Origin: a virus
Lineage: Duplodnaviria; Caudoviricetes
DNA: 64,000 nt
Reading direction: 5' to 3' (one strand)
IMG/VR virus record: IMGVR_UViG_3300007513_000003
Under the pieces are notes generated by a model. It searched no databases. It saw only the letters and a program-made list of their open reading frames with translations, and was not told where the DNA came from. A program made the translations under genes and the position numbers. Positions 604 to 58,504 of the stretch are shown here, in pieces (position 1 is the first letter of the stretch; every line of letters begins with the position of its first letter).

Positions 604-1062
604 TTACCCAGAAACGGCTTTTTCAACTGCATCATCTATGTCTTTAGGACGATCTTTTAGTTTTTGAAAGATATTCTTTTTCTTTGCGGCTAGTGGCGTT
701 TCTTCGTCATCTTTGCCTGTTAGTTTTTTATAACCAGCATATCCAGCACCTGCAAGCGCCGCAAGACTCCGAGCGGCGCCCGCGGCGTCCACGCGGGCAA
801 GCGCCGCAAGACCCGCCACTAGTGGCCAGCCTTCGTATAATGAGCCTTCTTGAATTTGACGCCTAATAGTAGCAGGGTCTTTGCCTGCCAATAACATGCC
901 TTCTTTGCCTTTCATATCTAAAGCATTGTCAGTAGGCTTCCACTTTTTAGTTGGTTTTTTGTTATTGTGTGCTACGTGCGGATTAGCAACGGTAGCGATA
1001 TTACCACTACTAGTGGCTCTTGGTGTTGCGGCTTCAAAGATTTCAAATTCTTTAAGTCTCAT
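604..1062 (-). CDS. probable virion internal protein with M-R-L-x-E-F leader and Ala/Gly-rich hydrophobic segment
   Basis: MRLKEFEIFEA start; TAAATA 5 nt upstream of ATG. Confidence 0.65.
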   Translation of the reverse strand: MRLKEFEIFEAATPRATSSGNIATVANPHVAHNNKKPTKKWKPTDNALDMKGKEGMLLAGKDPATIRRQIQEGSLYEGWPLVAGLAALARVDAAGAARSLAALAGAGYAGYKKLTGKDDEETPLAAKKKNIFQKLKDRPKDIDDAVEKAVSG

Positions 1063-1077
1063 ACTATTATTTATACT

Positions 1078-1416
1078 TTATAGGCGTTTATATAACCACT
1101 GTGAAATAGGAATATACGGATAGTCGTCCCAATCTGAGTACGGTGCGTCCTTTAGTTTCTCGTCTTTAGTTTCTTTTTTATCGTGTGTTTCTTTGTCTTT
1201 TTGTTGAGGAATATGTTGAGAATTACTAATCATTTCCCATTCCTCTTCTGTGTAAGGCATATGTGCTACTTCTTTTTTCTCTTGTGCCTCTGTACTTAAA
1301 TCACGAGTAAACCCACACTTTTTACAAACATAAATGCGATGGTCTATGATGTAACTACTATTTCCCTCACATTGCGAACATTGTATAAGTGTAGATTTTT
1401 TTTCGTTTTTAGCCAT
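1078..1416 (-). CDS. zinc-ribbon hypothetical protein
   Basis: CSQC...CKKC. Confidence 0.6.
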   Translation of the reverse strand: MAKNEKKSTLIQCSQCEGNSSYIIDHRIYVCKKCGFTRDLSTEAQEKKEVAHMPYTEEEWEMISNSQHIPQQKDKETHDKKETKDEKLKDAPYSDWDDYPYIPISQWLYKRL

Positions 1417-1846
1417 TGTTTAAGACATGATGGTCAGGTAACTCATCTTGTGAGTCGCTCCACTTTCCAACATGTTCCGTTTTAAACTCATGCTCTCTGT
1501 CTAAATATTTCCATTCAAGTTTTACTAAACCGAATTCTTGCAATTTCTCAAAAACTTGAATAGGTTTAAATGGCCCGCAAGTATAAACATCTAATTGAAG
1601 CAATGCTGGGTTTGGTTCGTCCCAAATATGCATTGCAATATGGCTTGTTTCAATGATTGAAACAACTGTGATGCCTGCGTTTCCTTCTACTTTCACATAC
1701 TCACAATGTGGACCTGAAAGTAATTTCATATCGATAGTTTTAATTAAATCTATCATCCATTGTTTTGTTTTTTCTACATCGTTCTCATCAGGAGGATTTG
1801 ATACTTCCGCTCTAATGATTAAATGTTTATGAATTGGCAATGCCAT
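1409..1846 (-). CDS. speD: S-adenosylmethionine decarboxylase proenzyme (class 1B)
   Basis: HKHLII, GIT..SIIETSHIAMHIW (E/S self-cleavage site), DVYTCG. Confidence 0.85.
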   Translation of the reverse strand: MALPIHKHLIIRAEVSNPPDENDVEKTKQWMIDLIKTIDMKLLSGPHCEYVKVEGNAGITVVSIIETSHIAMHIWDEPNPALLQLDVYTCGPFKPIQVFEKLQEFGLVKLEWKYLDREHEFKTEHVGKWSDSQDELPDHHVLNNG

Positions 1847-1857
1847 TATAATAATTC

Positions 1858-2049
1858 CTATATTTTTGCTAATATTGCAATTAATAAGATAATAATTAAA
1901 AACAACTCAGCCGCTAGAATAGTATGATACCAAACCCAACGTGCTTTGTATACTTTCTTTTTGTTAAACGTTTCTTTAATTTCAGTAACAAAGCTAGTGT
2001 CTTTGGCTGGTTCTTTTTTGTTATTATCTTTTGCAAAAAATTGCTTCAT
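1858..2049 (-). CDS. small membrane protein
   Basis: C-terminal hydrophobic helix; TAAATA upstream. Confidence 0.65.
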   Translation of the reverse strand: MKQFFAKDNNKKEPAKDTSFVTEIKETFNKKKVYKARWVWYHTILAAELFLIIILLIAILAKI

Positions 2050-2079
2050 ATATGGTATTTATATAAAACAGTTTTTAGG

Positions 2080-3130: not shown

Positions 3131-3559
3131 TTAATATATAAAAATAGATATTATAGTATAAAATACTATAAACAACATTACATAATTCAATAAACGACTT
3201 GATGAGTGTCGCTTTTGAGGATGTAGAAGACCTTGTCTTTCTTCCCACGTTGTGTTTGCTTCTAATACTTGTGTAAAGTGTTCTACTTTAAGTCTACCTT
3301 CTAATATAAATTTACCAATTGCTTCTTGCAACTCTATACGCACAGGAAAAGGAAGTTGCAACTTATTAGTTGGCATTAGTGAAAAATTACGTGACCACTT
3401 ATCCCAAGGATCACCTTGTACACCTACTTGACTGTGTGCATACATATAGGTTTGTTCGTCAGTATAATTTTGGACACTACTAACAACATTAATAAGTTGG
3501 CAATCTGTTAAACCTTGTACTATGACTTCTTGAGCATTGTCTGAGTATGTTGTTTTCAA
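3131..3559 (-). CDS. hypothetical protein with C-terminal TM helix
   Basis: 142-aa ORF in a coupled gene run. Confidence 0.65.
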   Translation of the reverse strand: MKTTYSDNAQEVIVQGLTDCQLINVVSSVQNYTDEQTYMYAHSQVGVQGDPWDKWSRNFSLMPTNKLQLPFPVRIELQEAIGKFILEGRLKVEHFTQVLEANTTWEERQGLLHPQKRHSSSRLLNYVMLFIVFYTIISIFIY

Positions 3560-3957
3560 TGGAATGCACCTTTAATTTTAAGTTCTTCAAGTTTTTCAGC
3601 GAACATTTCTTTATCTTCTATACTCATATCTTCCATGAGTTGCTTTTCTGTCATAAACTTTTTTATTACTTTGGTTCTTTCAGTGTTTTCATCAAAAGTT
3701 ATTTCTGCTTCACCAAAGTCTAACTCTTCCTTAGGAATACGTGGCATTATTTTTAAGAACAAAATATATAACTGCAAATAAGTTTTGGCATAGACATAAG
3801 ATTGCTTCATAGCCTGCTCTTCAATTGAGTCATCAGGATTTATTTTCATATCTTCTTTGTTGCCGGGGTTTTCATGTAACCAATCTTCAAACACCTCTGC
3901 TACATCTGCATAGAGGTCAAGTTCTTCAGCAGTTATTTTAATTTTATCACCCATCAT
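3556..3957 (-). CDS. acidic hypothetical protein
   Basis: 133-aa ORF overlapping the next gene by ATGA-type coupling. Confidence 0.7.
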   Translation of the reverse strand: MMGDKIKITAEELDLYADVAEVFEDWLHENPGNKEDMKINPDDSIEEQAMKQSYVYAKTYLQLYILFLKIMPRIPKEELDFGEAEITFDENTERTKVIKKFMTEKQLMEDMSIEDKEMFAEKLEELKIKGAFH

Positions 3958-3970
3958 AGTATTTACCCTT

Positions 3971-5710: not shown

Positions 5711-7780
5711 TTAACCAGTGCGTTTTGTGATCATTTCAGTGATATTAGCAGGGCACGGTGCGTAGTGACTAAACTCCATACTAAACTGACCACGGCCGCT
5801 CGTCATACCACGCAAGTCGCCAATATAGCCAAACATTTCACCAATTGGTGCTTCTGCCCAAATGCGTACCTTTTGTCCACTAACTTCTTGATTGCTAATC
5901 ATGCCGCGGCGTCTGTTAATGTCGCCAATAACGTCACCAACTTTATCCTCTGGAGCAATTACGTCAAGTTTCATGACAGGCTCTAGTAATTGTGGTCCTG
6001 CTTTAGGCATGGTTTGTCTAAAGCCACCTCGAGCCGCTAATTCAAACGCAATAGCACTTGAGTCAACTGCGTGTGAAGAACCGTCTGTTAATGTCACTTT
6101 AAAGTCTAACAACGGATAACCTGCTACAATGCCGTTATTAGCAGACTCTCTAAAACCTTTTTCAACAGCAGGCCAAAACTCTCTTGGCACATTACCACCG
6201 ACAACTTTTGATTCAAACTCAAAGCCGCCGCCTGATGGCAATGGCTCTATAGTATATTCAATATCACCAAATTGGCCAGAACCACCTGATTGCTTTTTAT
6301 GAACAAATTTGTCTTCCACTGTTTGTGTAATAGTTTCTCTGTATGCTACTTGTGGTTTACCAATACTTACTTCAATGCCATGGGTTCTTTTAAGAATGTC
6401 GCACTTAATGTCTAAGTGTAGTTCGCCCATACCCTTAAGAATAGTTTGCCCACTTTCTTGATCTGTTTCAACATGGAAGGACGGATCTTCAGCGACCATT
6501 TTACCAATAGCAGTTCCTAACTTATCCATGTCACCTTGTGTCTTTGGTTCAACAGCAATACTAATAACCGGGGCAGGGAATACCATTGGCTCTAGTACGG
6601 CGGGTTTATTTTTATCACACAGTGTATGACCTGTTTGTACAGTTTTCATACCAAGCAATGCAATAATATCGCCTGCTTGTGCAGAGTCCTTTTCTTCTCT
6701 ATTGTCGGCATGCATTTCTACAATACGGCCAACACGTTCGGACTTGCCTGTGCTACTGTTATAAATTGTATCACCTTTGTTAAGTTTGCCAGAGTAAATG
6801 CGTGTAAATGTCAATGCACCATACTTGTCGTCCATAATCTTAAACGCAAGTGCTCTTAGTGGTCTGTCATCATCAACAATAGCATGTTCACCTGTTTCAT
6901 TGCCTTCTAAGTCTACTTCTGGCTGTGGATCAACCTCAGTAGGATTAGGCAAATAATCAACCACGGCACTCAATACATTTTGTACGCCTTTATTTTTAAA
7001 TGAACTACCACAGAATGTTGGGAAGAAATCACAATTAATTGTACCCTTGCGAATACACTTTTTAAGATCTTCTTCGCTAATGCTGTCAGGATCCTCCATC
7101 CACTGCATCATTACATCGTCGTCTTGCTCTACAACTTGCTCTACCATTAGATCATAATATTCTTTGGCCTTGTCTGCCAAGTCTGCAGGAATGTCGCTAA
7201 TAGTGTAAGAAGTAGGATCTGCTGAATTTGACCAGGCCCATGCTTTTTGCGTAAGAATGTCTACAATGCCTACAAAATCATCTTCAGCACCAATTGGAAT
7301 AGCCATAATAACTGGTACTGCGTTTAAGCGATCTTTAATTTGCTCTACTACACGATAGAAATCTGCACCAACTCTATCCATTTTGTTAACGTAAATAACA
7401 CGGGCAACTTCACTGTCATTAGCATAACGCCAGTTTGTTTCGGATTGTGGTTCTACGCCTCCTACCGCGCAAAAAACACCAACGCCACCGTCTAATACTT
7501 TCAATGAGCGGTATACTTCAATTGTAAAGTCAACGTGTCCTGGTGTGTCAATAATGTTAAACTGGTGGTCATCCCAAAAGCATGTTGTAGCGGCTGACTG
7601 AATAGTAATACCGCGTTCCTGCTCTTGCTCCATAAAATCTGTAGTAGCGGCGCCGTCATGTACTTCGCCTATCTTATGGATTTTACCTGTTAGTTTTAAA
7701 ATGCGCTCTGTTGTTGTAGTTTTACCTGCATCAACGTGAGCGAAAATTCCTATGTTTCTATACTTTTGTAGATCTGACAT
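5711..7780 (-). CDS. fusA: translation elongation factor G, full length (689 aa)
   Basis: [15 protein letters not shown] (G1), RGITI (G2), DTPGHVDF (G3), NKMD (G4), [30 protein letters not shown]. Confidence 0.97.
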
Positions 7781-7807
7781 TCTTATTGCTCCAGCAAAAA
7801 TTTCTTA

Positions 7808-7854
7808 TATTTATAAGCAATAAGTATTGTACACTATTATTATGGTAATGTCAA
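7808..7854 (-). promoter_or_regulatory. tandem sigma70 promoter and T4-type late promoter for fusA
   Basis: TTGACA-N17-TACAAT (7826-7854) and TATAAATA (7808-7815). Confidence 0.7.
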
Positions 7855-7858: not shown

Positions 7859-9493
7859 TTAGAAACCCCACCAATCACGTACTCCGGGATTAAATGACCC
7901 GCTGGTTGTTCCTGTTATTTTCTCAACTTGCCCATCGCTGTTAGGCACGGGAGTAGAACTGAAATATTTATACTTTATCCATTCTTTACATTTATGACCT
8001 CCAACAAAAATTTCTTGTTCATTATAAGCATCTAATTCTACTTTATATCCCCAGATATAAGCAATATAGTTTAGCACGTCTACAGTAGATTCGTTTGCTA
8101 ATTCTCTACCGCTTTTACCTCTGTATAAATGTAACAATAATGTTCTTTTATCATCATGATCAAAGTCTCTTACTTGTATATCTGGAATGCGATAGTTATA
8201 GTCATATTGTCTTGCTAATTCTTTGCGTATGCTCTTGTAACCAGCGTTGTTATGGATTGCTTTTACTTGATAATGTGGATCTTGCTTGCGGTCGCCAAGT
8301 TGGAACAATCTAAAATCACGTATAACTTTTGGAGATAAAAACTGTAGTATAAAACTCTCGTCCCTATAATTAGCAACGATGTCTAATGTAATCTCTTTCC
8401 AATTACCGCCAGCAACATCAGGAAACCATTCTTTATCTTCTTTTGTTGGCTCATCGCACATACGTTTAATGTCTTGAAAAATAGCAAAACCTAATGCATA
8501 TGGATTTATGCCACCATAATATGGTTTATCAAATGTAAGTTGGTTTAAAACGTTTGTGTGTAGTTTTAAAAACTCTAGCATACTTGCGTCACAAATCAAA
8601 CCTTTTTCATGTAAACGATTCATTGTATAATAATGCACAAAGCAAGCATATCCTTCGTTCATCACTTTTGTTTGTCCTTGCGGATAAAAATATTGTGCTA
8701 TCTTACGCACAATACGACATAATTCGCGTTGCCAATCTGTTAAATTAGGCGCGTTTTTTTCAAGGAAATATATAATGTTTTCTTCTGGTTTATCCAAATA
8801 AACATATTTTCTGTCTGTTTTCTTCTTTTCTTCCTTTTTACGTTTAATTACTGTTGTGTCCCATAACTCATTAACATGTTTGCGTAAGTATTCTGCCCTT
8901 TCACCCGCTTTCTCTGCCTCTGCATACGAATTAAGTTTTACTGGACGCTTATATTTGTTAATACCGTAATTACGAATAGAGTGTAATGCATCTAAAAATA
9001 GTTCTACTTCGTCTAATCCATATTTTTCTTCACACTTCTTAACAAAGTTTTTAGCAAATACAAGATAATCAATAATTGCTTCTGCGTTTGTCCATGTTTT
9101 AAACAAGTAGTTATTTTTAAAGAAATGGTTGTGGCCAAACGCGGCGTGAGCAATAACTAATGCTTGCGTGGTCATTGTATTCTCTTCCATGAGATAGTTT
9201 ATGCATGGATTACTATTAATAACGAGTTCGTATGCTAAACTAGTTCTACCTTTTCTGTATTGATTTTCATAATGTGACCATGCCTTACCATTGCTCCAAT
9301 GGTTATATGATAAGGGCATACCAATACTTGCATATGCATCTAACATTTGCTCAAACGTTACAACTTCAAGTTGGTTCGTGTAAGTATCGCAACCAAGTTC
9401 ATTAACTGCAATATCTTCGCAAGCATCGTAGATGTTACTTACAAGTTCAAAACTCCAATCATCTTGTTGTGTGAATAATAGTTTAGTCATCAC
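7859..9493 (-). CDS. spoVR: SpoVR/YcgB family protein
   Basis: MPLSYNHWSNG, LAYELVINSNPC, HAAFGHNHFFKNN, TKVMNEGYA, YRDESFI.QFLSP. Confidence 0.93.
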   Translation of the reverse strand: MMTKLLFTQQDDWSFELVSNIYDACEDIAVNELGCDTYTNQLEVVTFEQMLDAYASIGMPLSYNHWSNGKAWSHYENQYRKGRTSLAYELVINSNPCINYLMEENTMTTQALVIAHAAFGHNHFFKNNYLFKTWTNAEAIIDYLVFAKNFVKKCEEKYGLDEVELFLDALHSIRNYGINKYKRPVKLNSYAEAEKAGERAEYLRKHVNELWDTTVIKRKKEEKKKTDRKYVYLDKPEENIIYFLEKNAPNLTDWQRELCRIVRKIAQYFYPQGQTKVMNEGYACFVHYYTMNRLHEKGLICDASMLEFLKLHTNVLNQLTFDKPYYGGINPYALGFAIFQDIKRMCDEPTKEDKEWFPDVAGGNWKEITLDIVANYRDESFILQFLSPKVIRDFRLFQLGDRKQDPHYQVKAIHNNAGYKSIRKELARQYDYNYRIPDIQVRDFDHDDKRTLLLHLYRGKSGRELANESTVDVLNYIAYIWGYKVELDAYNEQEIFVGGHKCKEWIKYKYFSSTPVPNSDGQVEKITGTTSGSFNPGVRDWWGF

Positions 9494-10829
9494 TTTTATC
9501 CTTTGGTGTAAAAAACCTTCTAAAAACTGGATATATATCTTTGCTTTGATGAACTCTACCTAATTGTATATTCGACCATTCTTGTGATAACATATAATAT
9601 CTCTTTTCCATACCAGCGCCTGCTACATATTTCAAATCAGCATGTGTCTGACCTGCATTAGGAACAATGCATAAGAATGTAAAATATTGGCAAATAGGTA
9701 AAAGATCGTTGCGTAAAACTTCTGCTACTTTATCATTGTCTGTTGTAAAATTATCACCATCACTTGCCTGGCTAATATAAATGTTCCAGTGTTCTAAATC
9801 ATATCGCTTCTTAATAATTTCATGTGTTAATTCTAATGCTGAACTTACTACTGTGCCGCCACTTTCTTTGCTATTAAAGAATTCATCTTCTGTACATTCC
9901 TTAGCAACAGTATGGTGGCGTATAAACACAATGTCTACCAAGTCATACTTCATATTTAAAAACATATGTAGTAAAATAAAAAAGCGTTTTGCTAAATTCT
10001 TTTCACGTTCTTGCATTGATATTGATACATCTAAAATACAAAACATTACAGCCGCATTTTTAGGCTTTGGTACTTTAGAGAAGTTGTTAAACTTTAGATC
10101 AATTGGATCAATAAACGAGATAGCATTGTATCTTGCTCGTATGCGTTTTATCTCTTCCTCAATCTCTTGCAAACGTAGCCATTCTTGTGTTCTATGATCT
10201 TTGCCTGGTGGCAATGTAGCAAAAAACTCAAGTATTTTATCACGCTCTTCTAGTAGTTCGCGTAATTTTCTTCCCTTAGGCTTTTTAAGAGCCAAACGTC
10301 TGCCAATACTGCGTATCATGCTCTGTTCTAAATTTAGATTGTTTGGTGAGCCTTCATTTACATAACCTGCTCTTTCAACACTAAACTCTTCAATACTTTT
10401 CTTTTGTTTCTCTATTAAATCAGGAAGTTCTAAGTCTTCAAATAATATATCTAAAAATTCATCTTTGTTTATAGAGAATACAAAATCGTCTTCGCCATAT
10501 GCATCATCTGAACCTTCAGATCCGCCGCCGCCTCCTTGGCCACCCTGGGGTGGTTTGCGTATTTTATCGCCAGGAACATATTCTTTATTGCCGGGTAAGA
10601 CATAATCTTTTTCACCTGATTTAGGATCGTATTGGAATTGTGGTTCTTTAATACTTTTAGCAGGAACTTTGACGCGGCTGCCAGACTTTAGATCCTTGAT
10701 AGATCTGTTTTTAATAGTTTCGTCTAAGCTTTCCTTAATATACTTCTTTGACCGCTCAATGAAGCGTTGTCTATTGGAAAGATTCTTTCCCTTAGGATTT
10801 GAACGCCTGTCAATAATATGCTTGGCCAT
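9483..10829 (-). CDS. yeaH: YeaH/YhbH family vWA-like protein
   Basis: IIDRR.NPKGKNLSNRQRF, Gly-rich linker, DVSISM (MIDAS-like), ESGGTVVSSAL, SDGDN. Confidence 0.93.
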   Translation of the reverse strand: MAKHIIDRRSNPKGKNLSNRQRFIERSKKYIKESLDETIKNRSIKDLKSGSRVKVPAKSIKEPQFQYDPKSGEKDYVLPGNKEYVPGDKIRKPPQGGQGGGGGSEGSDDAYGEDDFVFSINKDEFLDILFEDLELPDLIEKQKKSIEEFSVERAGYVNEGSPNNLNLEQSMIRSIGRRLALKKPKGRKLRELLEERDKILEFFATLPPGKDHRTQEWLRLQEIEEEIKRIRARYNAISFIDPIDLKFNNFSKVPKPKNAAVMFCILDVSISMQEREKNLAKRFFILLHMFLNMKYDLVDIVFIRHHTVAKECTEDEFFNSKESGGTVVSSALELTHEIIKKRYDLEHWNIYISQASDGDNFTTDNDKVAEVLRNDLLPICQYFTFLCIVPNAGQTHADLKYVAGAGMEKRYYMLSQEWSNIQLGRVHQSKDIYPVFRRFFTPKDKSDD

Positions 10830-10838
10830 GGTAAACCC

Positions 10839-16301: not shown

Positions 16302-16326
16302 CTGGTAATTACCTTTAAATATTTAT

Positions 16327-29577: not shown

Positions 29578-29589
29578 ACACATATTTAG

Positions 29590-42827: not shown

Positions 42828-42861
42828 ATAGTTATTTATAACGTATTATAATAACTATTTA

Positions 42862-43750: not shown

Positions 43751-43983
43751 TATGCAACAAGATCATCAATGGGGTGTGCAATTAATCCGTGAAATCCGCC
43801 TTTAATTAATGTATCGTCTTTATAAATCTGAGGAACAGTTCTAAAACCCTGGCCCAGGATCCATTGCTTTGCTTCTTCGTTTGTATCTAAACTAACTTCT
43901 TTATATTCAATATTGTTTTCTTCTAAATACTTCTTTGCACTAACACAAAAACCACACGTATCTTTACTATATACAGTAATCAT
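43750..43983 (-). CDS. glutaredoxin
   Basis: YSKDTCGFC, RTVPQI, GGF. Confidence 0.9.
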   Translation of the reverse strand: MITVYSKDTCGFCVSAKKYLEENNIEYKEVSLDTNEEAKQWILGQGFRTVPQIYKDDTLIKGGFHGLIAHPIDDLVA

Positions 43984-45107
43984 TTATTTAAATACTCCTT
44001 TAAAATTATTGGTTCTTCTCTATTTGGAAAGTAATCTTGTTTCTCTCCTTCTCTATATAAATCTAACGTTAAGCAATGCAAGCCGCCATCCCAGAAATAA
44101 CAATGTCTCCATGGTACATGTACGGGTTCCATTTTATGCTTTTTTAAAAAATCTAATAGATTTTTATTTGTCATACTACTAACACACACATGGCGCTCAT
44201 CTAATACTAAAACGTTAACGTCAAATACACTTTCCTCAACATACCCTACCCATTCATCTAACCAGGTATTAACATAATTTGCAAATTCTGGATTTGAAAC
44301 CGCTTCAGGATGCCACCATTTACCGTTTGTTTTCTGTTTCCAATTAAAAAAATCTCGAATTTTTTCCCAAGATTCATTTTCTATATAACATACATCCCAA
44401 TTTGGAAAGGTTTCATTATAGTCTTGAAAATCAAATACGCTTATAATAGCACCAGGCTTTATTGGATGAAAACATCCATCACTGTGAGAATATGGATTAT
44501 CTAATACATTTATTCGAGTATCTGCAAACATTCTTTTTAAGCCTGCCCAGGGCATACAGCATGTATAATTTATATAAGCATCTTTTCCTAGTAAAAAGAC
44601 ATTTGCACTTGTAGGAGGGTGTTTTTCTATGGAAAAATTTTCTATTTTTAAATAATCATCCGACTCATTTTGAAAATCAAACATATTATGCAATTTATAT
44701 CCGTTTGACTTGAGTCCATTTGTTATATTTAGATTATCAGCATAATTAGTCCATAGTTTATTTCCTATTACTATTTGATTATCTCTTGGTTGTAATGCAT
44801 TTCTAGGGATTTTTACTTCACCTACTTCATTAATATAATTTTCAATTCTATCGGATTTATCAGATGTAGGACGAATAACTTCGCATCCAAAATCTTTTAA
44901 AATTTTTTCATAATTTGATAAGTCTTCGAGTGTTTCTTCTGCAATTCTTTGCAAAGGGTTTCTAACTTTTGCATCTTTGATATTTTCAAAGAAGTCCGGC
45001 CCCCACACGGTGCCAAGCATTACTTTTTTAAGCGGATCCCATTTATTCCAGATGTTACACTCTTTCATTAATAAGGCGCCTTTAGATTCCACATCCACCC
45101 GCCACAC
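43980..45107 (-). CDS. amidinotransferase family protein (second copy)
   Basis: WNKWDPLKKVMLG, LQPRD, SHSDG, FWDGGLHCLTLDL; the ATG of MKECNIW may be the real start. Confidence 0.85.
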   Translation of the reverse strand: MWRVDVESKGALLMKECNIWNKWDPLKKVMLGTVWGPDFFENIKDAKVRNPLQRIAEETLEDLSNYEKILKDFGCEVIRPTSDKSDRIENYINEVGEVKIPRNALQPRDNQIVIGNKLWTNYADNLNITNGLKSNGYKLHNMFDFQNESDDYLKIENFSIEKHPPTSANVFLLGKDAYINYTCCMPWAGLKRMFADTRINVLDNPYSHSDGCFHPIKPGAIISVFDFQDYNETFPNWDVCYIENESWEKIRDFFNWKQKTNGKWWHPEAVSNPEFANYVNTWLDEWVGYVEESVFDVNVLVLDERHVCVSSMTNKNLLDFLKKHKMEPVHVPWRHCYFWDGGLHCLTLDLYREGEKQDYFPNREEPIILKEYLNK

Positions 45108-47161: not shown

Positions 47162-48994
47162 CTATGAATGTAAATATTCTATATAATATACAAGTGTTGC
47201 GGCCGAACCAGTACTGGTAGTAGTATATCGCATTGTTGCTGTACCAGCACTGTGCGTTACTGTAAATGTAACACCAGTTGCTCCAGTTTGAGTAATAGAA
47301 TCTGTTACAGTAGAAGCACCTGATTTAATTGCTATGCTAAGTTCGCCAACTTGTGATTCAGTACCTCTTGTTATACTATAATACATTTTTACATATTTAA
47401 CTTCCGACTCAAGGAAAGTAATACCAGTAGACGTGGCTGTTTGATTGTCTAGTAATGACAGTTGATTACTAATAGTATGCTCTCTTCTACCAAATAATTC
47501 CTTAGTGTCAGGTATTAATACATATCCGTCAGCGTGATTTAGTTGCACTCTGTCATATGTGCCAACATCACCATCTGTTCTACCAAATTTATCTGATATA
47601 CTTGTGCAATCTGAAACGTTTACGGAGTTAAAATTAATAACATCAGCAACAGCACTAGCAGTAGCATCTGCGTTGCCGTTATTGGCCACGTCAACAAATG
47701 TATTGCCTATAGAATAAATTCCTTGTGCGCGATCAACATCAATTGCTTCATAATCAATATCACGGAATAAAGAACTTGTAATTTTAATACTGTGTGGGCC
47801 TGTGCCTGATGCGGTTGTCTCACCTAACCAAAAACCTTTATACATTGTATCAAAGTTACAGTTATGGAATGATAATCCTTCGATAGCATCATTGGAATAA
47901 ACACCAAGTGGAACACCCTGGAACGAACAAGCATTAAAAACTAAGTTTCTTGTTCTTAGTGCGAGTGTTTCAGATATATTAAAACCGGCCGGTCTGTCAC
48001 TACTATTCAATCCATCAGTACTGTTATATGTGCCAACAAATGCTACATCTTCAAAATAAGAATTTAATGTAGAATCAATTTGAATACAGTCTTGAATTAA
48101 ATGTGTTGAATCAGTAGTTTTAATAGTCATACCTCTAATCACAATATTTTGCGGTTGGGTTGCACTATTATTACCAATATTTGGAGCGGCTTGGCCTTTG
48201 GAGTCAACTGTACGTATAACGCAACTATCATGCCCTGCCGTTTTACTTGACGTAATAGACACGCTGGCAGTTGAATAGCCGGCACCACCACTTACTTGTG
48301 TAAATGATGTAATTGCGCCGTCTGTTATATTTGCTGTAAATGATGCACCAGCACCATCACCTGTAATTGTTACAACAGGGGCAGTAGCATAACCAGCGCC
48401 TGGTGTGGCAACAGTTAATGAACTTACTGCGCCGGCAGTGATAGTCGCTGTGGCTGTTGCATTGGTTTGTGTCTCTTCATATTGTATAATTGTTTTTCCA
48501 GAGCCATCACCGTATAATGTCGCCCAAGTAGGAACTTCTATAGGTGCAGTGACTTTATATACACCTGCAGGGAAATATAAACTTCTGCGGGCCTTTTGTG
48601 TTGTGTCTCTAACAAACAGTTGGTATATTGCTCTTGCAATCGCCGCAGTATCATCTACTGTGCCGTTGCCACTGGCACCAAAGTCCATTATACTTACGTG
48701 GTCATCAAGTCTATCTTGCAATGTTCTAACAATAGGAGCTCCCGCCGTTGCGCCGGTATCTACTGTTGCGCTTGCATTGCCTTCATAAGTAAAATTGATG
48801 AGACCTGCTAAATCACTGTGTTCTGTTAGAATTGCTGTATTGCCAACTACAGGTGCACCAGCACTTAACGGCCCATTACCGATGTATAATTCTCTTGTGT
48901 TGGTTACCCAACCCAATTCAGCATGTGATAACTGTGGAAGATTTTCTGCTAACCCTCTACGATGTTGAATTCTAGAAATTTGTACAATTGCCAT
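47162..48994 (-). CDS. tail fibre/spike-like virion protein with pectate-lyase-like beta-helix
   Basis: MAIVQISRIQHRRG, DFGASGNGTVDDTAAI, LYFPAGVYKV, LYGDG. Confidence 0.75.
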   Translation of the reverse strand: MAIVQISRIQHRRGLAENLPQLSHAELGWVTNTRELYIGNGPLSAGAPVVGNTAILTEHSDLAGLINFTYEGNASATVDTGATAGAPIVRTLQDRLDDHVSIMDFGASGNGTVDDTAAIARAIYQLFVRDTTQKARRSLYFPAGVYKVTAPIEVPTWATLYGDGSGKTIIQYEETQTNATATATITAGAVSSLTVATPGAGYATAPVVTITGDGAGASFTANITDGAITSFTQVSGGAGYSTASVSITSSKTAGHDSCVIRTVDSKGQAAPNIGNNSATQPQNIVIRGMTIKTTDSTHLIQDCIQIDSTLNSYFEDVAFVGTYNSTDGLNSSDRPAGFNISETLALRTRNLVFNACSFQGVPLGVYSNDAIEGLSFHNCNFDTMYKGFWLGETTASGTGPHSIKITSSLFRDIDYEAIDVDRAQGIYSIGNTFVDVANNGNADATASAVADVINFNSVNVSDCTSISDKFGRTDGDVGTYDRVQLNHADGYVLIPDTKELFGRREHTISNQLSLLDNQTATSTGITFLESEVKYVKMYYSITRGTESQVGELSIAIKSGASTVTDSITQTGATGVTFTVTHSAGTATMRYTTTSTGSAATLVYYIEYLHS

Positions 48995-49009
48995 ATGTAT
49001 ATTTATACT

Positions 49010-50449
49010 TTAGGCATTATAATCACAGTTGCTACAAGCAGAGGCACACATATTTAAATTACCACAATCACCGTAGTCGGCATTTAGAGTCTGTAGAAAC
49101 CTATTCTCTGTTGTATTTGGAGTCCATGTATTTGCTATTGTGTCAAAAAATCCTGTTTTGAATACTTCTTCTATACCACCATATTTTAGAGCATTGTTAG
49201 CATCGTTTTTAAAACCAAAAGTTAATAACAATTCTCTCAGATCGTAAGTGTACTCATTTGCAATTCTTGTGTGATTATGACCCATCATACAACACGGATA
49301 AACAAAGCCGTCTGCTGTAATAAAAACTTTAGATTCTGTTACAGCCATGCAATTTATTTTTCTATTACTGTGCTTTTTACTCGATGGTAAACCTCTCAGA
49401 ACTTTATTGACATCAACGTTGTCATATTCTTCAATATTGGTCACTTTCCATAGCGAATCTTTAACCCAAATAAATTTTTCTGCTTCTTCTTCCCATGATT
49501 TATTTTGACTAACATATTTTTCTTGTGCGATTTTTAAAAATGATGTATATTCTTTTATATTAATTTGATCAATTTGGTTATCATCTTCACTAACAAACAT
49601 ATGTGCCTTATATTTTTTTGCAATATTGTATACAGGACCCTTTCCGTGTTTTTGGATAGCCTTTTTAAAAAGATCAGACAATGTTTCATTTACTTCATAA
49701 AGCATTGCATCTAAATATGGATATGATATTTTTATATCTGTTTGTTCTTCATTATTTTTGATGTTTTCTGTTTGATCAGTTAAGTATCTGTCATAATCTT
49801 CTAAGCCTTCCGCACCTTGAAGTTGACCAACATATTCTCCTTTACTGGTATATACTGGAGTATCTTCTGGCCTATCCGTATTGATAATTTCTATTTTTGC
49901 AAAATTATATTCTTTGGCAAGTTCTTTAACATCTTCAAATTGATGTTGATTATGTTTAAAAAGTATAAACTGTAAAATAGCATTTCCACCTGCGTCTATA
50001 AATGCTTTTGCGTTTTCTAAAACTTTTTTAAGATTTGTGTTTTGTCTATAATAAGAATGTACTTCTTGCGTTGTGCCATCTACTGCAAACCATATTTTCA
50101 TATTTTTATACTTTGCAAAATTTGCCCAATAATCAGTACTATGCATTCCGCCGTTGGTATTAATTTCAATTATAATATCATTATTACAGGAATAAAGATA
50201 ATCTACCATTTGAGGTAGATTAGGATTTACTTGGGCGTCTCCAACATTTCCACAAAATATAACACGTTCTAAGTTGGATACCAGTTTTGATGTTAATAAA
50301 AATTTAAACTCATCTAGCGACATGTGTTTTTGATAGGTGCCTGCTAGTTCTCCATATCCATAATATGCTCTACTACAGGCAGGGCATGCCGCGTTACACT
50401 TTTCGGTTATTTCAATTTGTACACTAGTAATATCTTTATATCTATACAT
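49010..50449 (-). CDS. radical SAM protein with C-terminal SPASM-like domain
   Basis: CNAACPAC, FCGNVGD, INTNGG, VYPCC...CASACSNC; start taken as MYRYK at 50449. Confidence 0.85.
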   Translation of the reverse strand: MYRYKDITSVQIEITEKCNAACPACSRAYYGYGELAGTYQKHMSLDEFKFLLTSKLVSNLERVIFCGNVGDAQVNPNLPQMVDYLYSCNNDIIIEINTNGGMHSTDYWANFAKYKNMKIWFAVDGTTQEVHSYYRQNTNLKKVLENAKAFIDAGGNAILQFILFKHNQHQFEDVKELAKEYNFAKIEIINTDRPEDTPVYTSKGEYVGQLQGAEGLEDYDRYLTDQTENIKNNEEQTDIKISYPYLDAMLYEVNETLSDLFKKAIQKHGKGPVYNIAKKYKAHMFVSEDDNQIDQINIKEYTSFLKIAQEKYVSQNKSWEEEAEKFIWVKDSLWKVTNIEEYDNVDVNKVLRGLPSSKKHSNRKINCMAVTESKVFITADGFVYPCCMMGHNHTRIANEYTYDLRELLLTFGFKNDANNALKYGGIEEVFKTGFFDTIANTWTPNTTENRFLQTLNADYGDCGNLNMCASACSNCDYNA

Positions 50450-51128
50450 CCAAATTATAATATTGAGCAACGCGTCTGTTCCATTCGTTAGCTGCGTTCT
50501 CAAACTCCTTGCCTTCGATAACAAACTCTTGATAATTTAAGTCTTTAGAGCACATTAACACAACCCCGGTTTTAATGTCTGTACCAAACATTTCATTGTG
50601 TGCTTGTGCGTATGCGGCTAACTGGCAAAAATAGTTGCTAATCCATTCTTTTTTCTTAGGTTTATTAGTTTGCTTAAAGTCAAGTATTGCTAAGTTACCT
50701 TTCCAAAGTCCTACACAATCTGTTGTGCCTGCGTATAATCCTTCATAGTATAGCGAGACTTCTGTACCATATATTTCGCTAACTTTCCTAAGTCCTTCGG
50801 CAATAATAACATTTGACATGTTGTATGCTTTTTGGTGTATGACATTACTGCCAACTTTGCGTTCATGGCTCTCAATATATAATTCTAAATTTTTATGCAT
50901 TAGTGTGCCGACATTTGCGGCTTCTGTACTAATTTGCTGTGCTTGCGTTTCGCCAACACGCTTTTTCCAGTTTGCTAATGCTTCTCTTTCTTGTTGGGAT
51001 TTAGTCGCGTCTAATATAGTTGTAACGCTAGGAACTGCTGATCCATCAGGTAATTGATACTTGCGTTTTCTATCTATAGTCGTAACACGTTTTAATTCGT
51101 TGTAATCGTATTTTTCCAGTAATATCAT
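50442..51128 (-). CDS. PD-(D/E)XK exonuclease (Cas4/MGME1-like phage recombination nuclease)
   Basis: PSVTTIL, GTLMH, EVSLY, AGTTD, ILDFKQ, QLAAYA. Confidence 0.88.
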   Translation of the reverse strand: MILLEKYDYNELKRVTTIDRKRKYQLPDGSAVPSVTTILDATKSQQEREALANWKKRVGETQAQQISTEAANVGTLMHKNLELYIESHERKVGSNVIHQKAYNMSNVIIAEGLRKVSEIYGTEVSLYYEGLYAGTTDCVGLWKGNLAILDFKQTNKPKKKEWISNYFCQLAAYAQAHNEMFGTDIKTGVVLMCSKDLNYQEFVIEGKEFENAANEWNRRVAQYYNLDV

Positions 51129-51176: not shown

Positions 51177-53057
51177 TTAACCTATACGTCTGGCTGGATT
51201 ATTCACCGTAAAAGAAGTATTACCAACTGTGACACTTACTGCTGGCTCATACCCATCACCTGGTTTTGGAAAACGGTAGTGTCCACGATTGCCATTGTTA
51301 AATCCTGTAAATACACCAGTATCTCCGCCCACAATAACAGTTGTTTTGGCATATTTGGAAGGCAACACTACAACAAGCTTATTATCTTTTTCAGATTTTG
51401 GTTTCCAAACTGCTCCAGCTCCCAAAGCACTGAATGAATGAATCCCTATAAAAGTTGTAATAGATCCGCCGTTGCCGCCGTCCTTGTCGCCGACTGAAGC
51501 CCAAGCACTTGCTTTATCATGATTCAAAGTAATATTACCGGCAGTAACTGTCACTGACGATAACTTACTAGTGACTGGCCAACTAGATACATTGTGATGT
51601 AACCAAGATGCACCGACCATACCACTTGATTGTGATGATGTTGTCGATCCGCCCGGTGCAGGCCAAGTAACTTTAATTAAGTTAGATCTTTCGTTAACAT
51701 TTCTTTCGCTTCCCCGCGCTAAACCAGATACCATAAAATAGAGTGTTTCTCCTGTGCTTGGAGACCAAGACGCCAATGGCGGCTGTTTTATATGGTCACC
51801 ATTTACGGCTTTTCGTGATTTAGTTACTTGTCCCGGGCGCATCCATTCCCACGTGGCTGCATACCAATGGCCACTTAAATTAACAAATACCCATGGATTT
51901 GCGGCGACCGGTACACCATTAATAGTGACAGTGCCTCCGACGGGGATCTCGTCTATCAACGAGCCACCAGTTAACAGTTTTCCTGTTGGACTAAATGTTG
52001 TTACGTTAGATACATCTTGGACTGTGCCATCTCCACTGTTTATAATGCCAGGCACTCTTGCGAAATCATTATCTACTTCCGTACGGAATAAACCAATTCC
52101 TGATAATTGTCCCATTGAATTATCAATGTTTCCTGCCATAGTATTGATTAAACCCATTACTGCGTTAAGGGCACCATTCGTATCGCCTGGATCTGCAAAG
52201 TCGTATGATCCGCCGCTTATATCTGTATTTAAATCTTCATACAGGTAATTCTCTGTTCCCATTGCTTGGCCGGCAGGTCTCATTACTACTTGTCCATTTC
52301 CTTTATCACCTAAGCCAAAAAAGTTTATCTTTGTTTGTGGGTGTATTGGCTCAGTTAATCCTTCGACTGGCGCAAGGACTCCACTAGTACTTTGTGTTAA
52401 AGCTTCGCCTGACCTTTCTTTAGGCCCCACTGGCCCCATTTGGTCAGGTTTGCCTATAACTAGTGTATCATCTATTATTGAGATATGATCTAATATCGTA
52501 TTATTCCAATTAATTACCCATTTAATAGGTTCAGTTACTCTTGCATCAAACCAATTTCCAGGATGTATTTGGTATCCTAGTTTTCGAAAATGAGTAAGAA
52601 CAGCATTAATTTGTTTGTGTCTTTGGAAAATCTGTGGTTCTTTTTCTTTTATAGCGGCCATAAGTTCTGGCATTGTCATATCTTGGGCATCAGGAATCTC
52701 CATAATGGAAGTGAAAGGATCACCTGTCCATGCCGCGCCATATTGAAATATTTCTTCAAGTAAAAACCAATGGCCATATGTATACTTGCCAGCCATCACT
52801 GGGCCAGTATCTACTACTGCCCTAACATTTCCTGCTTCTGACGATGTTTTAAGAACTTGATTAATGAACTGTACTTCTTGCTTTACAGATGCATCGCCTA
52901 ATATTGTTCTACTGCGTAACGTAGTCGCAGGCGGTGTTTCAGTATTATCTCCAGTAGTACCTACAGCCGGATCATATGTATACCGTATAGTTGTAGGAGT
53001 TCCATACGCTCCGGTTGAGACTTCATCAGTATCATCAGTATTATTATCGTCAGTCAT
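51177..53057 (-). CDS. large Gly/Thr/Pro-rich virion protein
   Basis: 626 aa, mosaic domain structure, late box upstream. Confidence 0.6.
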   Translation of the reverse strand: MTDDNNTDDTDEVSTGAYGTPTTIRYTYDPAVGTTGDNTETPPATTLRSRTILGDASVKQEVQFINQVLKTSSEAGNVRAVVDTGPVMAGKYTYGHWFLLEEIFQYGAAWTGDPFTSIMEIPDAQDMTMPELMAAIKEKEPQIFQRHKQINAVLTHFRKLGYQIHPGNWFDARVTEPIKWVINWNNTILDHISIIDDTLVIGKPDQMGPVGPKERSGEALTQSTSGVLAPVEGLTEPIHPQTKINFFGLGDKGNGQVVMRPAGQAMGTENYLYEDLNTDISGGSYDFADPGDTNGALNAVMGLINTMAGNIDNSMGQLSGIGLFRTEVDNDFARVPGIINSGDGTVQDVSNVTTFSPTGKLLTGGSLIDEIPVGGTVTINGVPVAANPWVFVNLSGHWYAATWEWMRPGQVTKSRKAVNGDHIKQPPLASWSPSTGETLYFMVSGLARGSERNVNERSNLIKVTWPAPGGSTTSSQSSGMVGASWLHHNVSSWPVTSKLSSVTVTAGNITLNHDKASAWASVGDKDGGNGGSITTFIGIHSFSALGAGAVWKPKSEKDNKLVVVLPSKYAKTTVIVGGDTGVFTGFNNGNRGHYRFPKPGDGYEPAVSVTVGNTSFTVNNPARRIG

Positions 53058-53065
53058 AATAATAT

Positions 53066-53617
53066 TTATAATAGTTTTAGTTTTGTAAGATACAACTGTA
53101 AATCTTTATCATTAACACCTTTAACAGTGCTAGCTGCCTTATGTAAAGCTACTCCAGAATTATCTCCTCGTTTTTTATATTGTATATAATACTTTGCCGC
53201 CAACTTATATGCCTTATTTTTTATTGCTGTCATTAGTTTACCTTCATCAAGTTCCAATTCAGCATATTTGTTATTCATTACCGCAGGCTTTAATTTAAAC
53301 CCTGGGTCTGGTATAATTATTTCATATTTGTCTGTAGTTTTTGTTGATGTTTCTTTAGGCATACCATCTTTTTTTAATTGTTGAAAACTGTTTTTACTTA
53401 ATTGTTTTACCCAATTTTTTTGTTTCTTACCTTTGGGATTAGTCCAAATCAATTGAAATATTTTCTTTTTAGTAGCTCCAGCTCCCAGGCGATACTCTCT
53501 TTCTTCTCCTTCATCAAGTCCATGCCATTCTTTAAATGTTTTAACACCCATTGCGTTTTGCACAGTTCTAAACAGTGTTAAAGCATCTTTACTATTAGCA
53601 AATTCGAAAAGTCTCAT
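53066..53617 (-). CDS. basic probable head-internal protein (MRLFEF leader)
   Basis: TAATG coupling places the start at 53617. Confidence 0.6.
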   Translation of the reverse strand: MRLFEFANSKDALTLFRTVQNAMGVKTFKEWHGLDEGEEREYRLGAGATKKKIFQLIWTNPKGKKQKNWVKQLSKNSFQQLKKDGMPKETSTKTTDKYEIIIPDPGFKLKPAVMNNKYAELELDEGKLMTAIKNKAYKLAAKYYIQYKKRGDNSGVALHKAASTVKGVNDKDLQLYLTKLKLL

Positions 53618-55561: not shown

Positions 55562-56041
55562 TTAAAAAACGCAATTATAATATAGTTGCGTTAAGTTGTC
55601 TTTTGCCTCTTGGGCATTCCAAACGTAGGTTTTAACTCTAGATTCTATAAAATCTACTTTAAACCAATCGCTTTCTTCAGCATAATACTTAATTTTTTCT
55701 TTGGATATTAATAATTTTTCAACTGCATTGCCATATTTTATATCGCTCTCGAGTACTTGCTTATATTTTACTTGATCACCATTATTATGAAAAACAGCCA
55801 GCATAATAGCAGCCTTTTTTGTGTATATATTTTTCTCGATAATTGAATAACCTTTGTTATATCCTTTCTTAAGAACATATCCATTTTGTGTTTTTCTAAT
55901 TCGAATATCGCCTACTTTTATGCCTTTATTAAGTTTTTTAATTTTTAAATAATGTAATCTTCCATGCTTTTCTAACTTCTCCATCATGTCGTCATACATG
56001 TCCGAAAAAGTCGCATCGATTTTTTTCTTAGATTGGTTCAT
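55562..56041 (-). CDS. hypothetical protein
   Basis: 159-aa ORF; TAAATA-N5-ATG. Confidence 0.65.
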   Translation of the reverse strand: MNQSKKKIDATFSDMYDDMMEKLEKHGRLHYLKIKKLNKGIKVGDIRIRKTQNGYVLKKGYNKGYSIIEKNIYTKKAAIMLAVFHNNGDQVKYKQVLESDIKYGNAVEKLLISKEKIKYYAEESDWFKVDFIESRVKTYVWNAQEAKDNLTQLYYNCVF

Positions 56042-56077
56042 ACTAATATTTAACCGTATACGGTTGTTTAAAAAATA

Positions 56078-56914
56078 TTATTGGTCAGCAATCATGTTAA
56101 CAATTGTTTTACCACGATTACCAACTTGATTGTACCACTTACTATTTTGTAGTTCTTTTGCGGCAGTTTTCCAATCACCTTTTTCGGCCGCCGCGGAAAA
56201 TTTTGGCCATGTCTTGTGCCAATTTGGACCCATATTATAAGCCAAATCAACCATCGCTTGTTTGCGTCTTTGGTCCGCTAAATTATAACCAGGTGTTGTT
56301 CTTGCACCCTTTACATGATGCTCAAAGTCTTTGTCAAACATTTCGTCTGCTTGTTGGTCTGTAATGCCTTTGGAAAAGTCTTCGCCAGGCTTAACTAAGT
56401 GTCCATAACCAATTGTGTCCTTGCCAACTGTGTCTTTATAAACTTTTAAGCGTTTGCCTTCGTGATGCTTAATCATACTCTTAAGAGCATTTACATCACC
56501 AAATTCTTTGTCATATGGATCTTGTTCGATTGTTTGTGTTATTTGTGTTTTTGTTTGTAGATCAGGCTGTGGTGTATTTTGATCAATTGAATGTATGCCA
56601 CTTGCCGCCAATGCTCCAGCGGCCGCAACACTGGCCGCAGTTTTTTTGAGATCTTCGTTCAATATATCTTTATATAATGACACTTTTATTTGAGACTCAT
56701 CTAGTTTAAAGTTGCGTATATACGCTATCTTACCTTCAACTTTTACACGTTTAAGAATATCCTTCTTAACTAAGCCATCAGCAATCCACTGCTCATGCTC
56801 ATTTAGATCTCTTTTAAATACTCTCTTATCAGTGTATTTTAACAAATAGTCACTCTCTTGTAAATTAACATAAACTAAACTTACGTCAGGATTCTGTATT
56901 TGTGCAAATCTCAT
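56078..56914 (-). CDS. GH24 (T4-type) lysozyme with long N-terminal extension
   Basis: IKHHEGKRLKVYKDTVGKDTIGYGHL, MVDLAYNMG, SKWYNQVGNRG. Confidence 0.88.
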   Translation of the reverse strand: MRFAQIQNPDVSLVYVNLQESDYLLKYTDKRVFKRDLNEHEQWIADGLVKKDILKRVKVEGKIAYIRNFKLDESQIKVSLYKDILNEDLKKTAASVAAAGALAASGIHSIDQNTPQPDLQTKTQITQTIEQDPYDKEFGDVNALKSMIKHHEGKRLKVYKDTVGKDTIGYGHLVKPGEDFSKGITDQQADEMFDKDFEHHVKGARTTPGYNLADQRRKQAMVDLAYNMGPNWHKTWPKFSAAAEKGDWKTAAKELQNSKWYNQVGNRGKTIVNMIADQ

Positions 56915-56923
56915 TTCTTTTTC

Positions 56924-57376
56924 CTAATTTATTTTGTTCAACTCATACTGCACCATGTCGCCTTGGTCTTCAACGTATGCGTTATAGCCTAACTGTCTAG
57001 CAAACTTTTGTACCATTCTAGAATAAAGGTTTGTTCTGCTTGGGTTGTCGCCTATATCTCCTTTTTCACCGGAAAAAAATATCATTTCGGGACTACGTTC
57101 TTTAATAAACTTTTTTATAGCGTGTAAAACTGTAGCAAATATTTTATAAGCATCGCCTTCACCTGATACATCTTGACTATGATTTCTATGAAACTCTACT
57201 TGATATTCCCCGTTCCCTTCATGATTGAACATAATAAGCAGTGGTGTGTCGTCAGGTAAGTTGGCAAATGCTCGCATGCCGCCATGGGGGCCCGGGCCCT
57301 GGAAGCCATCCGTTTCACCTGTCCATGATAGAGGATAAGGTTGGTCAAATGTTTCAAACAGTTCTGCTATTTTCAT
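56924..57376 (-). CDS. probable packaged protein (MKIAELFE leader)
   Basis: Leader motif; GDAYKIFATV, R..LYSRM. Confidence 0.6.
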   Translation of the reverse strand: MKIAELFETFDQPYPLSWTGETDGFQGPGPHGGMRAFANLPDDTPLLIMFNHEGNGEYQVEFHRNHSQDVSGEGDAYKIFATVLHAIKKFIKERSPEMIFFSGEKGDIGDNPSRTNLYSRMVQKFARQLGYNAYVEDQGDMVQYELNKIN

Positions 57377-57906
57377 TTCTTACCGCCTTTCATGTTAAAG
57401 TTCTCGCTTAGGTATTCGTCTAGAGCATCTTCACCAGTTGGACTAATTGCCCAAGCACCATCGCCACCATAAATTAAACCTGAGCCATCTAGTTCATCAT
57501 ATAATCTGCTCATAGCAGGTGTAAGACTGTGTGAATCTTCTTCAAAGTCCATACCTAATTCGTCTGCTGTGGCTATTGCTTTTAACAATAGCATGCCGCC
57601 GTGTCCTTTATTACGAAACTCTGGGAATATTTCTGCAAAGTTACGCACATTATCTTCGTTGCGTGTATGTGTATATTGTCCTGCGTGTTTACCGTCTACG
57701 TATAAATCTACAGTAAAACCATTTTTTTGTTTGGTTACGCGAAACTGCTTACCGTCAACAAAGCTTTCGTTTGTAAGTAATTTTGGCTTTCCGCTACCAA
57801 GTCCTAACTTTTTAACATTAGCATATTCGCTTCCAATTGGAGCGTCTTTTGTGGCATTTTGTTTTGTAATAATGCCTACTGCTTCAGTTAATTCTGCAAT
57901 TTTCAT
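57373..57906 (-). CDS. GNAT-like acetyltransferase with MKIAELTE leader
   Basis: IFPEFRNKGHGGMLL resembles acetyl-CoA binding motif A; AMSRLY. Confidence 0.55.
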   Translation of the reverse strand: MKIAELTEAVGIITKQNATKDAPIGSEYANVKKLGLGSGKPKLLTNESFVDGKQFRVTKQKNGFTVDLYVDGKHAGQYTHTRNEDNVRNFAEIFPEFRNKGHGGMLLLKAIATADELGMDFEEDSHSLTPAMSRLYDELDGSGLIYGGDGAWAISPTGEDALDEYLSENFNMKGGKK

Positions 57907-57913
57907 ACTGTAT

Positions 57914-58504
57914 TTATAGGTTATTGTTAGCTAACCAAGCAGTATATATACTCCGATAATAACTTTCTATCTCAATAACATCTAACAACTTTCCATTAAC
58001 TATATCTTCTAGTTTAATAATATTATCAGTGTGCTGTTTAATTAGGTGAGAGAAATGTATATACATTTCTGCATATTGTTTTATAGTTGTAGCGTCACAT
58101 ACTTGGGTCATTTCTTCCCACGTGTGGGGGCGATGTAACTGTTTAAATCGCTCTGCGGCCCACATTGCTATGTCAAAGTCATCGACAGTAATACCTATGA
58201 AGTCGTGTTTTCGTTCAATATGGTAGGCCAAATCATGACTTGGAATACTACCATAATATTTTGCAATTTCTATTAGGTAATGATCTTTCTCACTATTATT
58301 TTTAAATAAATGGGGTTTTTTAAGTCTACTACGATCTTTTGATAACCTGATTCTATTAGAATCAGACCTGATTCTATTAGAATCAGACCTGATATCAGAC
58401 CTGATTCTATTCTTATTAATTTTGCCATTGCATGAATCATATAGCATAGTAATAAGATCACCGCATGATCCGCCCATGTAAACTATAAGGAATAAGTCTT
58501 TCAT
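57914..58504 (-). CDS. hypothetical protein (P-loop/sulfotransferase-like N-terminus) containing an in-frame palindromic repeat expansion
   Basis: MKDLFLIVYMGGSCGDLI; IKLEDIV. Confidence 0.5.
   Translation of the reverse strand: MKDLFLIVYMGGSCGDLITMLYDSCNGKINKNRIRSDIRSDSNRIRSDSNRIRLSKDRSRLKKPHLFKNNSEKDHYLIEIAKYYGSIPSHDLAYHIERKHDFIGITVDDFDIAMWAAERFKQLHRPHTWEEMTQVCDATTIKQYAEMYIHFSHLIKQHTDNIIKLEDIVNGKLLDVIEIESYYRSIYTAWLANNNL
58345..58411. repeat. palindromic 21-nt tandem repeat array
   Basis: ACCTGATTCTATTAGAATCAG x2, then ACCTGATATCAG and ACCTGATTCTATT. Confidence 0.9.

Follow-up and report, generated by a model that had tools for sequence, protein, structure and literature searches.

The question raised by this locus is why one hexamer, TAAATA, recurs at a single fixed distance from the ATG of so many genes. 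The locus is a 64-kb stretch (the window) of the IMG/VR virus record IMGVR_UViG_3300007513_000003 (Caudoviricetes); it has 36% G+C, its minus strand holds 76 of 89 crude gene calls, and a DNA search with it found no close cultured phage. The initial annotation had listed 11 genes in which TAAATA ends five bases before the start codon (a spacing termed N5 below), and had predicted that their mRNAs are leaderless. All 11 sites are in the sequence as described, as are the two N4 sites claimed at 27473 and 57906 (both minus strand); four others had been missed, at 3954 (minus strand, N5), 2049 and 27504 (minus and plus strand, N6) and 37092 (minus strand, N8). We estimate at roughly three in four the probability that the box, (N)ATAAATA, is a gp55-type late promoter fused to the ATG, giving leaderless late mRNAs.

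TAAATA-N5-ATG occurs 15 times in the window when both strands are counted, compared with a mean of 2.6 expected and a maximum of 6 in 60 simulations under a third-order Markov model, and other spacings between the hexamer and an ATG occur 0-5 times each. This count, which had been proposed as a check of the prediction, rejects AT-rich background as its source and confirms that the pattern at gene starts is real and well above chance. The ATG is the first of an open reading frame (ORF) of at least 40 aa at 12 of the 15 sites, and further window genes have the box at N4 or N6 (four) or at N8 (one). Two other genomes served for genome-wide tests: a 322,647-bp IMG/VR relative (G001), which carries an orthologue of the 626-aa protein starting at 53057 in the window, and the cultured pelagimyophage HTVC008M. 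The spacing belongs to ATG, the counts for ATG, GTG and TTG at N5 being 15/0/1 in the window and 46/2/7 and 14/1/5 in the two other genomes; at 52 of 61 TAAATA-N5-ATG sites the ATG is the first of a real ORF. Anagrams of the hexamer show no N5 peak except as frame-shifted readings of the same box. Between 34 and 39% of TAAATA copies are intergenic, though intergenic DNA makes up only about 5%, and the hexamer is rarer than its own anagrams. Single-base variants of the box give at most slight bumps (TAAATT in G001 and HTVC008M, TAAATC in HTVC008M). Host-type -10 boxes (TATAAT, TANNNT, TACAAT) have no peak at the leaderless distance, which makes the layout specific to the late class.

The genes with the box fused to their ATG, about 10-18% of genes and about one in six in this phage, differ from their neighbours in how they start. 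A short positive gap separates them from the upstream gene every time, and overlap or coupling never occurs. Scoring for Shine-Dalgarno (SD) sequences bore out the earlier remark that they leave no room for one: the box fills positions -11 to -6, and the bases from -5 to -1 are AT-rich. A GGAG-type SD precedes about 45% of the remaining genes, so that the genome has two classes of starts. The idea that the TAA of the box is merely the stop codon of the upstream gene was rejected, as this is true in 1 of 12 window cases and in only 7 of 60 across the three genomes.

The sites themselves are as follows, on the minus strand unless stated otherwise, with the gene given first and the span from box to ATG second. 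Among the N5 genes, TATAAATA precedes a 152-aa gene (604-1062; 1060-1073), whose G001 orthologue has the box at N7, the PAAR gene (42537-42827; 42825-42838) and a tail-fibre-like gene (47162-48994; 48992-49005), both with orthologues that are also N5 (G001_15891 for PAAR), and the 626-aa gene (51177-53057; 53055-53068), in which the TAA of the box doubles as the upstream stop. ATAAATA precedes a cytidylyltransferase-cupin gene (24560-25351; 25349-25362; orthologue G001_313608 also N5) and a MotA/ExbB-like gene (32279-32749; 32747-32760). The core TAAATA precedes genes of 132 aa (3556-3954; 3952-3965; orthologue G001_285836 also N5), 126 aa (plus strand, 16327-16707; 16316-16329), 75 aa (16704-16931; 16929-16942), 295 aa (plus strand, 22201-23088; 22190-22203; orthologue G001_310425 also N5), 261 aa (28792-29577; 29575-29588) and 159 aa (55562-56041; 56039-56052; orthologue G001_28939 also N5). 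At the 261-aa gene, the box (29583-29588) directly abuts the 3' end of a tmRNA gene. The spacing is N4 at a 139-aa gene (ATAAATA; 27054-27473; 27471-27483) and a 177-aa gene (TATAAATA; 57373-57906; 57904-57916), and N6 at a 63-aa gene (TATAAATA; 1858-2049; 2047-2061) whose orthologue G001_285022 is N5. A 646-aa gene (35152-37092; 37090-37106), the first of an operon ending with bS21, has ATAAATA at N8 and thus a predicted leader of about 3 nt; its G001 orthologue is N6, and a start at 37092 is supported by the offset in their alignment. A TAAGTA-N5-ATG variant is present, as had been noted, before a 117-aa gene (26671-27024; 27022-27035), but its status as a promoter stays uncertain because TAAGTA shows no clear N5 peak genome-wide.

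It had also been argued that the spacing picks the better start codon where the ORF prediction chose another. This is supported at 32749, where the alignment with the G001 orthologue (76% identity) runs from residue 1 to residue 1; at 29577, the start may instead be 29583, two codons away.

The layout is kept in relatives. Ten IMG/VR orthologues of the 626-aa protein, 41-52% identical to it, all retain ATAAATA-N5-ATG (10/10). G001 has 46 N5 sites, against 7 occurrences of the reversed pattern and 3-14 of other spacings; its TAAATA is again less frequent than the anagrams and shows about 7-fold enrichment in intergenic DNA. Three further related contigs gave 6/1, 6/1 and 13/3 (N5 sites/reversed pattern). 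Among 62 reciprocal-best pairs between the window and G001, the motif is present in both members of 8, in neither member of 46 and in only one member of 8 (table 8/2/6/46, Fisher p = 3e-5). The alignments of these pairs begin at residue 1, and their flanks have diverged. Some pairs agree in their N-terminus and yet differ in layout, leaderless in one genome and with box, leader and SD in the other: the MotA/ExbB-like gene is N5 in the window, and in G001 has the box 23 nt upstream together with AGGAG. A separate observation concerns the cytidylyltransferase-cupin gene, whose promoter and first codons are found twice on the minus strand of G001, 516 nt apart (313608 and 314124); the copy further upstream, which gives an 8-codon frame only, is a duplicated late promoter with a start stub.

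We then considered what the box is. A position matrix built from 52 sites, in which TAAATA itself was fixed by the search, revealed only (A)TAAATA, with A at -12 in 27 of 52, and an absence of conservation from -45 to -13, that is, no -35 element. The 5-nt spacer is AT-rich, with T at -4, A at -3 and T at -1 predominating, and of the 16 window sites spaced N4-N6, six have the full TATAAATA (1062, 2049, 42827, 48994, 53057 and 57906). The T4 late promoter is an 8-bp box of the same sequence (TATAAATA) at -13 to -6, AT-rich up to +1 and without a -35 element (PMC2988020). Superimposing this geometry on the N5 spacing would place +1 on the A of the ATG. A cognate sigma factor was found in G001, which encodes a gp55-type protein (phrog_12791, E = 2e-74; phrog_234, E = 4e-23) whose gene adjoins that of SbcD/gp47, a synteny shared with T4 and the Rak2/PA5oct-type jumbo phages; by gp55, the latter are the closest cultured relatives of G001 (37-46% identity). 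HTVC008M encodes gp55, gp33, gp45 and gp44.

The distance between box and ATG is bimodal. When the window, G001 and HTVC008M are pooled, the box lies 4-6 nt before the ATG at 75 genes, a trough follows at 7-16 nt (20 sites), and a second mode occupies 17-28 nt (44 sites), mostly with GGAG between box and ATG. Such a distribution fits a promoter, whose transcript would either begin with AUG or have a leader long enough for an SD, and would not be predicted for a translational enhancer. Three window loci illustrate the second mode, all on the minus strand: TATAAATA lies 27 nt before the ATG of the EF-G gene with GGAG between (7778-7813), a predicted leadered late promoter, TATAAATA lies 31 nt before the ATG at 62078 with AGGAG between (62076-62115), and ATAAATA lies 24 nt before the ATG at 30579, again with AGGAG (30577-30609). 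The initial annotation had set 62078 apart for its long leader with AGGAG; the AGGAG is indeed there, and with the box upstream we read it as a leadered late promoter. The motif genes that could be annotated mostly encode virion or packaging proteins (PAAR and a tail-fibre-like protein in the window; terL, a head-tail adaptor, a tail fibre and a tape-measure-like protein in G001), and most motif genes are unannotated.

All together, these results suggest the following mechanism. The (N)ATAAATA box would act as a late promoter of the -10 type, without a -35 element, read by the host RNA polymerase with a phage sigma factor of the gp55 family. At the 12 window genes where it ends five bases before the ATG (16 with N4 and N6), transcription would start at the A of the start codon or no more than one base from it. 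The resulting late mRNA would be leaderless, with a 5'-terminal AUG and no SD, and its translation would follow the route open to 5'-AUG mRNAs in general. In other late genes the same box would be followed by a 13-22-nt leader carrying GGAG. On read-through RNA from upstream, an SD-less internal AUG would stay silent, which would tie synthesis of the protein to the firing of the late promoter. That the box is a gp55-type late promoter with +1 on the A, as initially proposed, is the best reading of the T4 geometry, the gp55 homologue in G001 and the conservation, to which the restriction to ATG, the bimodal spacing and the RNA hints described below, which are weak, can be added.

A first alternative retains the late promoter but moves initiation off the A, leaving a leader of a few nucleotides or a start elsewhere and a different route of translation without SD, which would make the mRNAs nearly leaderless. 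The box does also occur 4, 6 and 8 nt from the ATG, and the start choice of RNA polymerase can shift by about 1 base, but the sharp N5 peak coincides exactly with the distance from box to +1 in T4, is limited to ATG and is followed by the 7-16-nt trough, and we regard this version as unlikely. It is less probable still that TAAATA, at -11 to -6, serves on polycistronic mRNA as an A/U-rich element that binds ribosomes without an SD, rather than as a promoter. Such an element would account for a box at roughly the SD position, for most motif genes closely following a gene on the same strand, and for RNA-library contigs that bridge one site. It would not account for the same box 17-28 nt upstream of genes with their own GGAG, for its match to the late box of T4, cyanophages and Rak2-type phages with gp55 present, or for its enrichment throughout intergenic DNA; moreover, the box lacks this spacing in phages whose hosts use SDs in the ordinary way. 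Cleavage of a longer RNA at the box, generating 5' ends near the AUG, appears very improbable: AU-rich sequences are typical endonuclease targets and contig ends cannot separate primary from processed ends, but the box is identical to a known promoter consensus, without a -35 element and with its cognate sigma present, and no cleavage system of such specificity was found. Last, a compositional by-product of compact AT-rich gene junctions (TAA stop, short spacer, ATG) is scarcely credible, as the TAA within the box is the upstream stop in those few cases only, the Markov, reversed-pattern and anagram controls give no peak, the box is kept while flanks diverge, and the AT-rich genomes of T4 and P-SSM2 are not enriched.

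The RNA data consisted of Logan contigs from marine metatranscriptomes; the strains they represent are about 90-96% identical to the window. In two runs, contigs end at 48982 and at 53044-53046, each running straight into Illumina adapter; both ends fall 12-13 nt into a motif gene (those starting at 48994 and 53057) and their orientation fits RNA 5' ends (read 1). Standard second-strand protocols lose roughly ten 5' nucleotides. The adapter-ended contigs hint, weakly, that RNA 5' ends lie at the ATG; the PAAR site was bridged. Stretches without RNA cover upstream of 48994, 53057, 56041 and 57906 would fit promoter onsets and were not counted as evidence.

Several points weigh against a gp55-type promoter fused to the ATG. 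Contigs assembled from related strains cannot reveal where an RNA truly begins, PCR duplicates can give rise to adapter junctions, and in the same libraries contigs bridge the PAAR site (42827), which implies either read-through RNA or contaminating DNA. The gp55 evidence comes from the relative G001 and from HTVC008M and is presumed to hold for the window's own phage, and G001 gave no match to T4 gp45, Syn9 gp33 or PF09116, gp33 and gp45 being small and divergent. The 5' ends of the motif genes are not significantly less structured (p = 0.06) or more A-rich (p = 0.16) than those of other genes. Finally, the late timing of these genes is presumed from their homology to T4 late genes.

Among cultured phages, the layout is restricted. 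Counts of N5 sites and of the reversed-pattern control showed no enrichment in T4 (10/5), Cassandra (14/12), Ecwhy_1 (4/14), Atu_ph07 (15/9), BF (5/13), PA5oct (15/12), SCTP-2 (24/19), Syn9 (3/3), P-SSM2 (6/6) or Melnitz (5/3), and three rhizobiophages had 0 N5 sites. Both cultured pelagimyophages were enriched, HTVC008M (14/4) and Mosig (11/3). In HTVC008M, 12 of the 14 N5 sites are annotated starts, and eight belong to homologues of T4 late structural genes, for the tape measure, gp2, head closure, the tail-tube cap, the baseplate and tail completion, with gp4 and gp48 among them. One HTVC008M site (142681-142694, plus strand) lies 91 nt upstream of the annotated PhoH start with no annotated gene, and may mark a missed small ORF or an alternative start. 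In a metagenomic study of pelagimyophages, late-promoter prediction was "unsuccessful", and bS21 was counted among the core genes of these phages (PMC7029224). The layout follows a marine, SAR11-type setting, not the presence of bS21.

The initial annotation had further suggested that the phage bS21, bL33, EF-G and tmRNA remodel ribosomes for leaderless mRNAs. The comparative data give this no support. E. coli ribosomes that have lost uS2 and bS21 are the better ones at translating leaderless lambda cI mRNA (PMC10491246). As a simple rule, a link between bS21 and the layout had to be dropped because PA5oct, Cassandra and SCTP-2 carry bS21 without it, and remodelling is also disfavoured by the many SD-led genes that are kept, some of them behind late boxes. 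The bS21 of the window falls in viral clusters only in a protein atlas, and its nearest cellular homologues (about 50% identity) are scattered over Bdellovibrionota and Desulfobacterota. The sole pointer to the host is the tmRNA (29588-29882, minus strand), whose permuted alphaproteobacterial type (RF01849, RF04321) hints at an alphaproteobacterium.

The promoter type and leaderless translation are each known already. T4 late promoters, served by the gp55 sigma, the gp33 co-activator and the gp45 clamp, have the same box, no -35 element and an AT-rich stretch from box to +1; T4 differs in having no preferred distance between box and ATG, where in the present phages the two are fused at 11-18% of genes, and its late mRNAs have leaders containing an SD. 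The Rak2-like jumbo phages CBB and GAP32 have the same ATAAATA before structural genes and a long-form gp55, and no recognisable gp33 or gp45, which likewise went undetected in G001; the report on CBB describes the ATAAATA late motif and does not mention leaderless mRNAs (PMC5259590). Cassandra, PA5oct, Ecwhy_1, BF and Atu_ph07 differ by their lack of N5-ATG enrichment. Known leaderless mRNAs (lambda cI from pRM; those of Actinobacteria, Deinococcus and archaea) likewise have a -10-type box abutting the start, AUG first and no SD. However, these systems use a host housekeeping promoter, whereas here only the phage late box has the layout, which would define a stage-specific gene class within one virus. 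In T4, read-through early RNA of e, soc, 49 and I-TevI is untranslated and only RNA from the late promoter is translated (PMC3014915). By analogy, the same late-only logic may hold here; in the T4 genes the SD is hidden in a hairpin absent from the late transcript, while here no structure would be needed. The mapped transcriptomes of the jumbo phages phiKZ and AR9 contain no leaderless mRNAs. Poxvirus late promoters have a TAAATG initiator that overlaps the start codon, and their mRNAs are essentially without a templated leader; poxviruses differ as eukaryotic viruses with their own RNA polymerase, 5' poly(A) heads and cap-dependent translation, and the likeness is an analogy only. Our literature search found no description of gp55-type promoters systematically fused to start codons as a late gene class.

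Late promoters placed on start codons would be missed by motif searches that expect a leader, which would explain why their prediction failed in pelagimyophages (PMC7029224). The layout also provides a simple start-codon rule for these genomes and flags the roughly 10-18% of genes unable to use an SD. A further prediction is that abundant ocean viruses make leaderless mRNAs as a stage-specific class, directly testable with the cultured HTVC008M and Mosig on Pelagibacter HTCC1062; if it is true, one would ask how SAR11-type ribosomes handle 5'-AUG mRNAs, and whether phage ribosomal proteins have any role. A more far-reaching proposal, which we offer as speculation and consider unlikely, is that leaderless late expression is a distinct, selected programme that arose independently in two marine lineages of the T4 superfamily (a giant-phage clade related to Rak2/PA5oct, and the pelagimyophages). 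About 10-18% of phage proteins would then be strictly dependent on late promoters, and the programme may also be coupled to ribosomes altered by the phage (an N-terminally extended bS21, bL33, EF-G), which late in infection would change how initiation is divided between SD-led and 5'-AUG mRNAs.

A few further features of the window were recorded. At 16316-16325 two divergent late boxes overlap as a near-palindrome: the plus-strand box is fused to the ATG at 16327, and the minus-strand TATAAATA (16320-16325) lies 18 nt before the ATG at 16301 with AAAGG between. Some genes with neither SD nor late box (51128 and 61603, minus strand) have other AT-rich boxes near the ATG; TATAAT sits 7 nt before the ATG at 51128. 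A complete PrkA / DUF444 / SpoVR module, corresponding to the bacterial stress module of the yeaG-yeaH-ycgB type, occupies 7859-12779 (minus strand), with all genes SD-led; its PrkA is 92% identical to the G001 copy and is the most conserved protein of the comparison. Two radical-SAM genes lie at 14345-15688 and 49010-50524 (minus strand), one of them with an N-terminal SPASM domain. Finally, in all four RNA-library runs position 43985 is joined directly to 45086 with 15 other letters between, and a 375-aa ORF at 43980-45107 (minus strand; phrog_25854, no Pfam match), beside a ribonucleotide reductase gene, is thus present in the window and absent in those related strains. Its best G001 match is 33% identical and located elsewhere in that genome, and the ORF may be a mobile or recently inserted gene.

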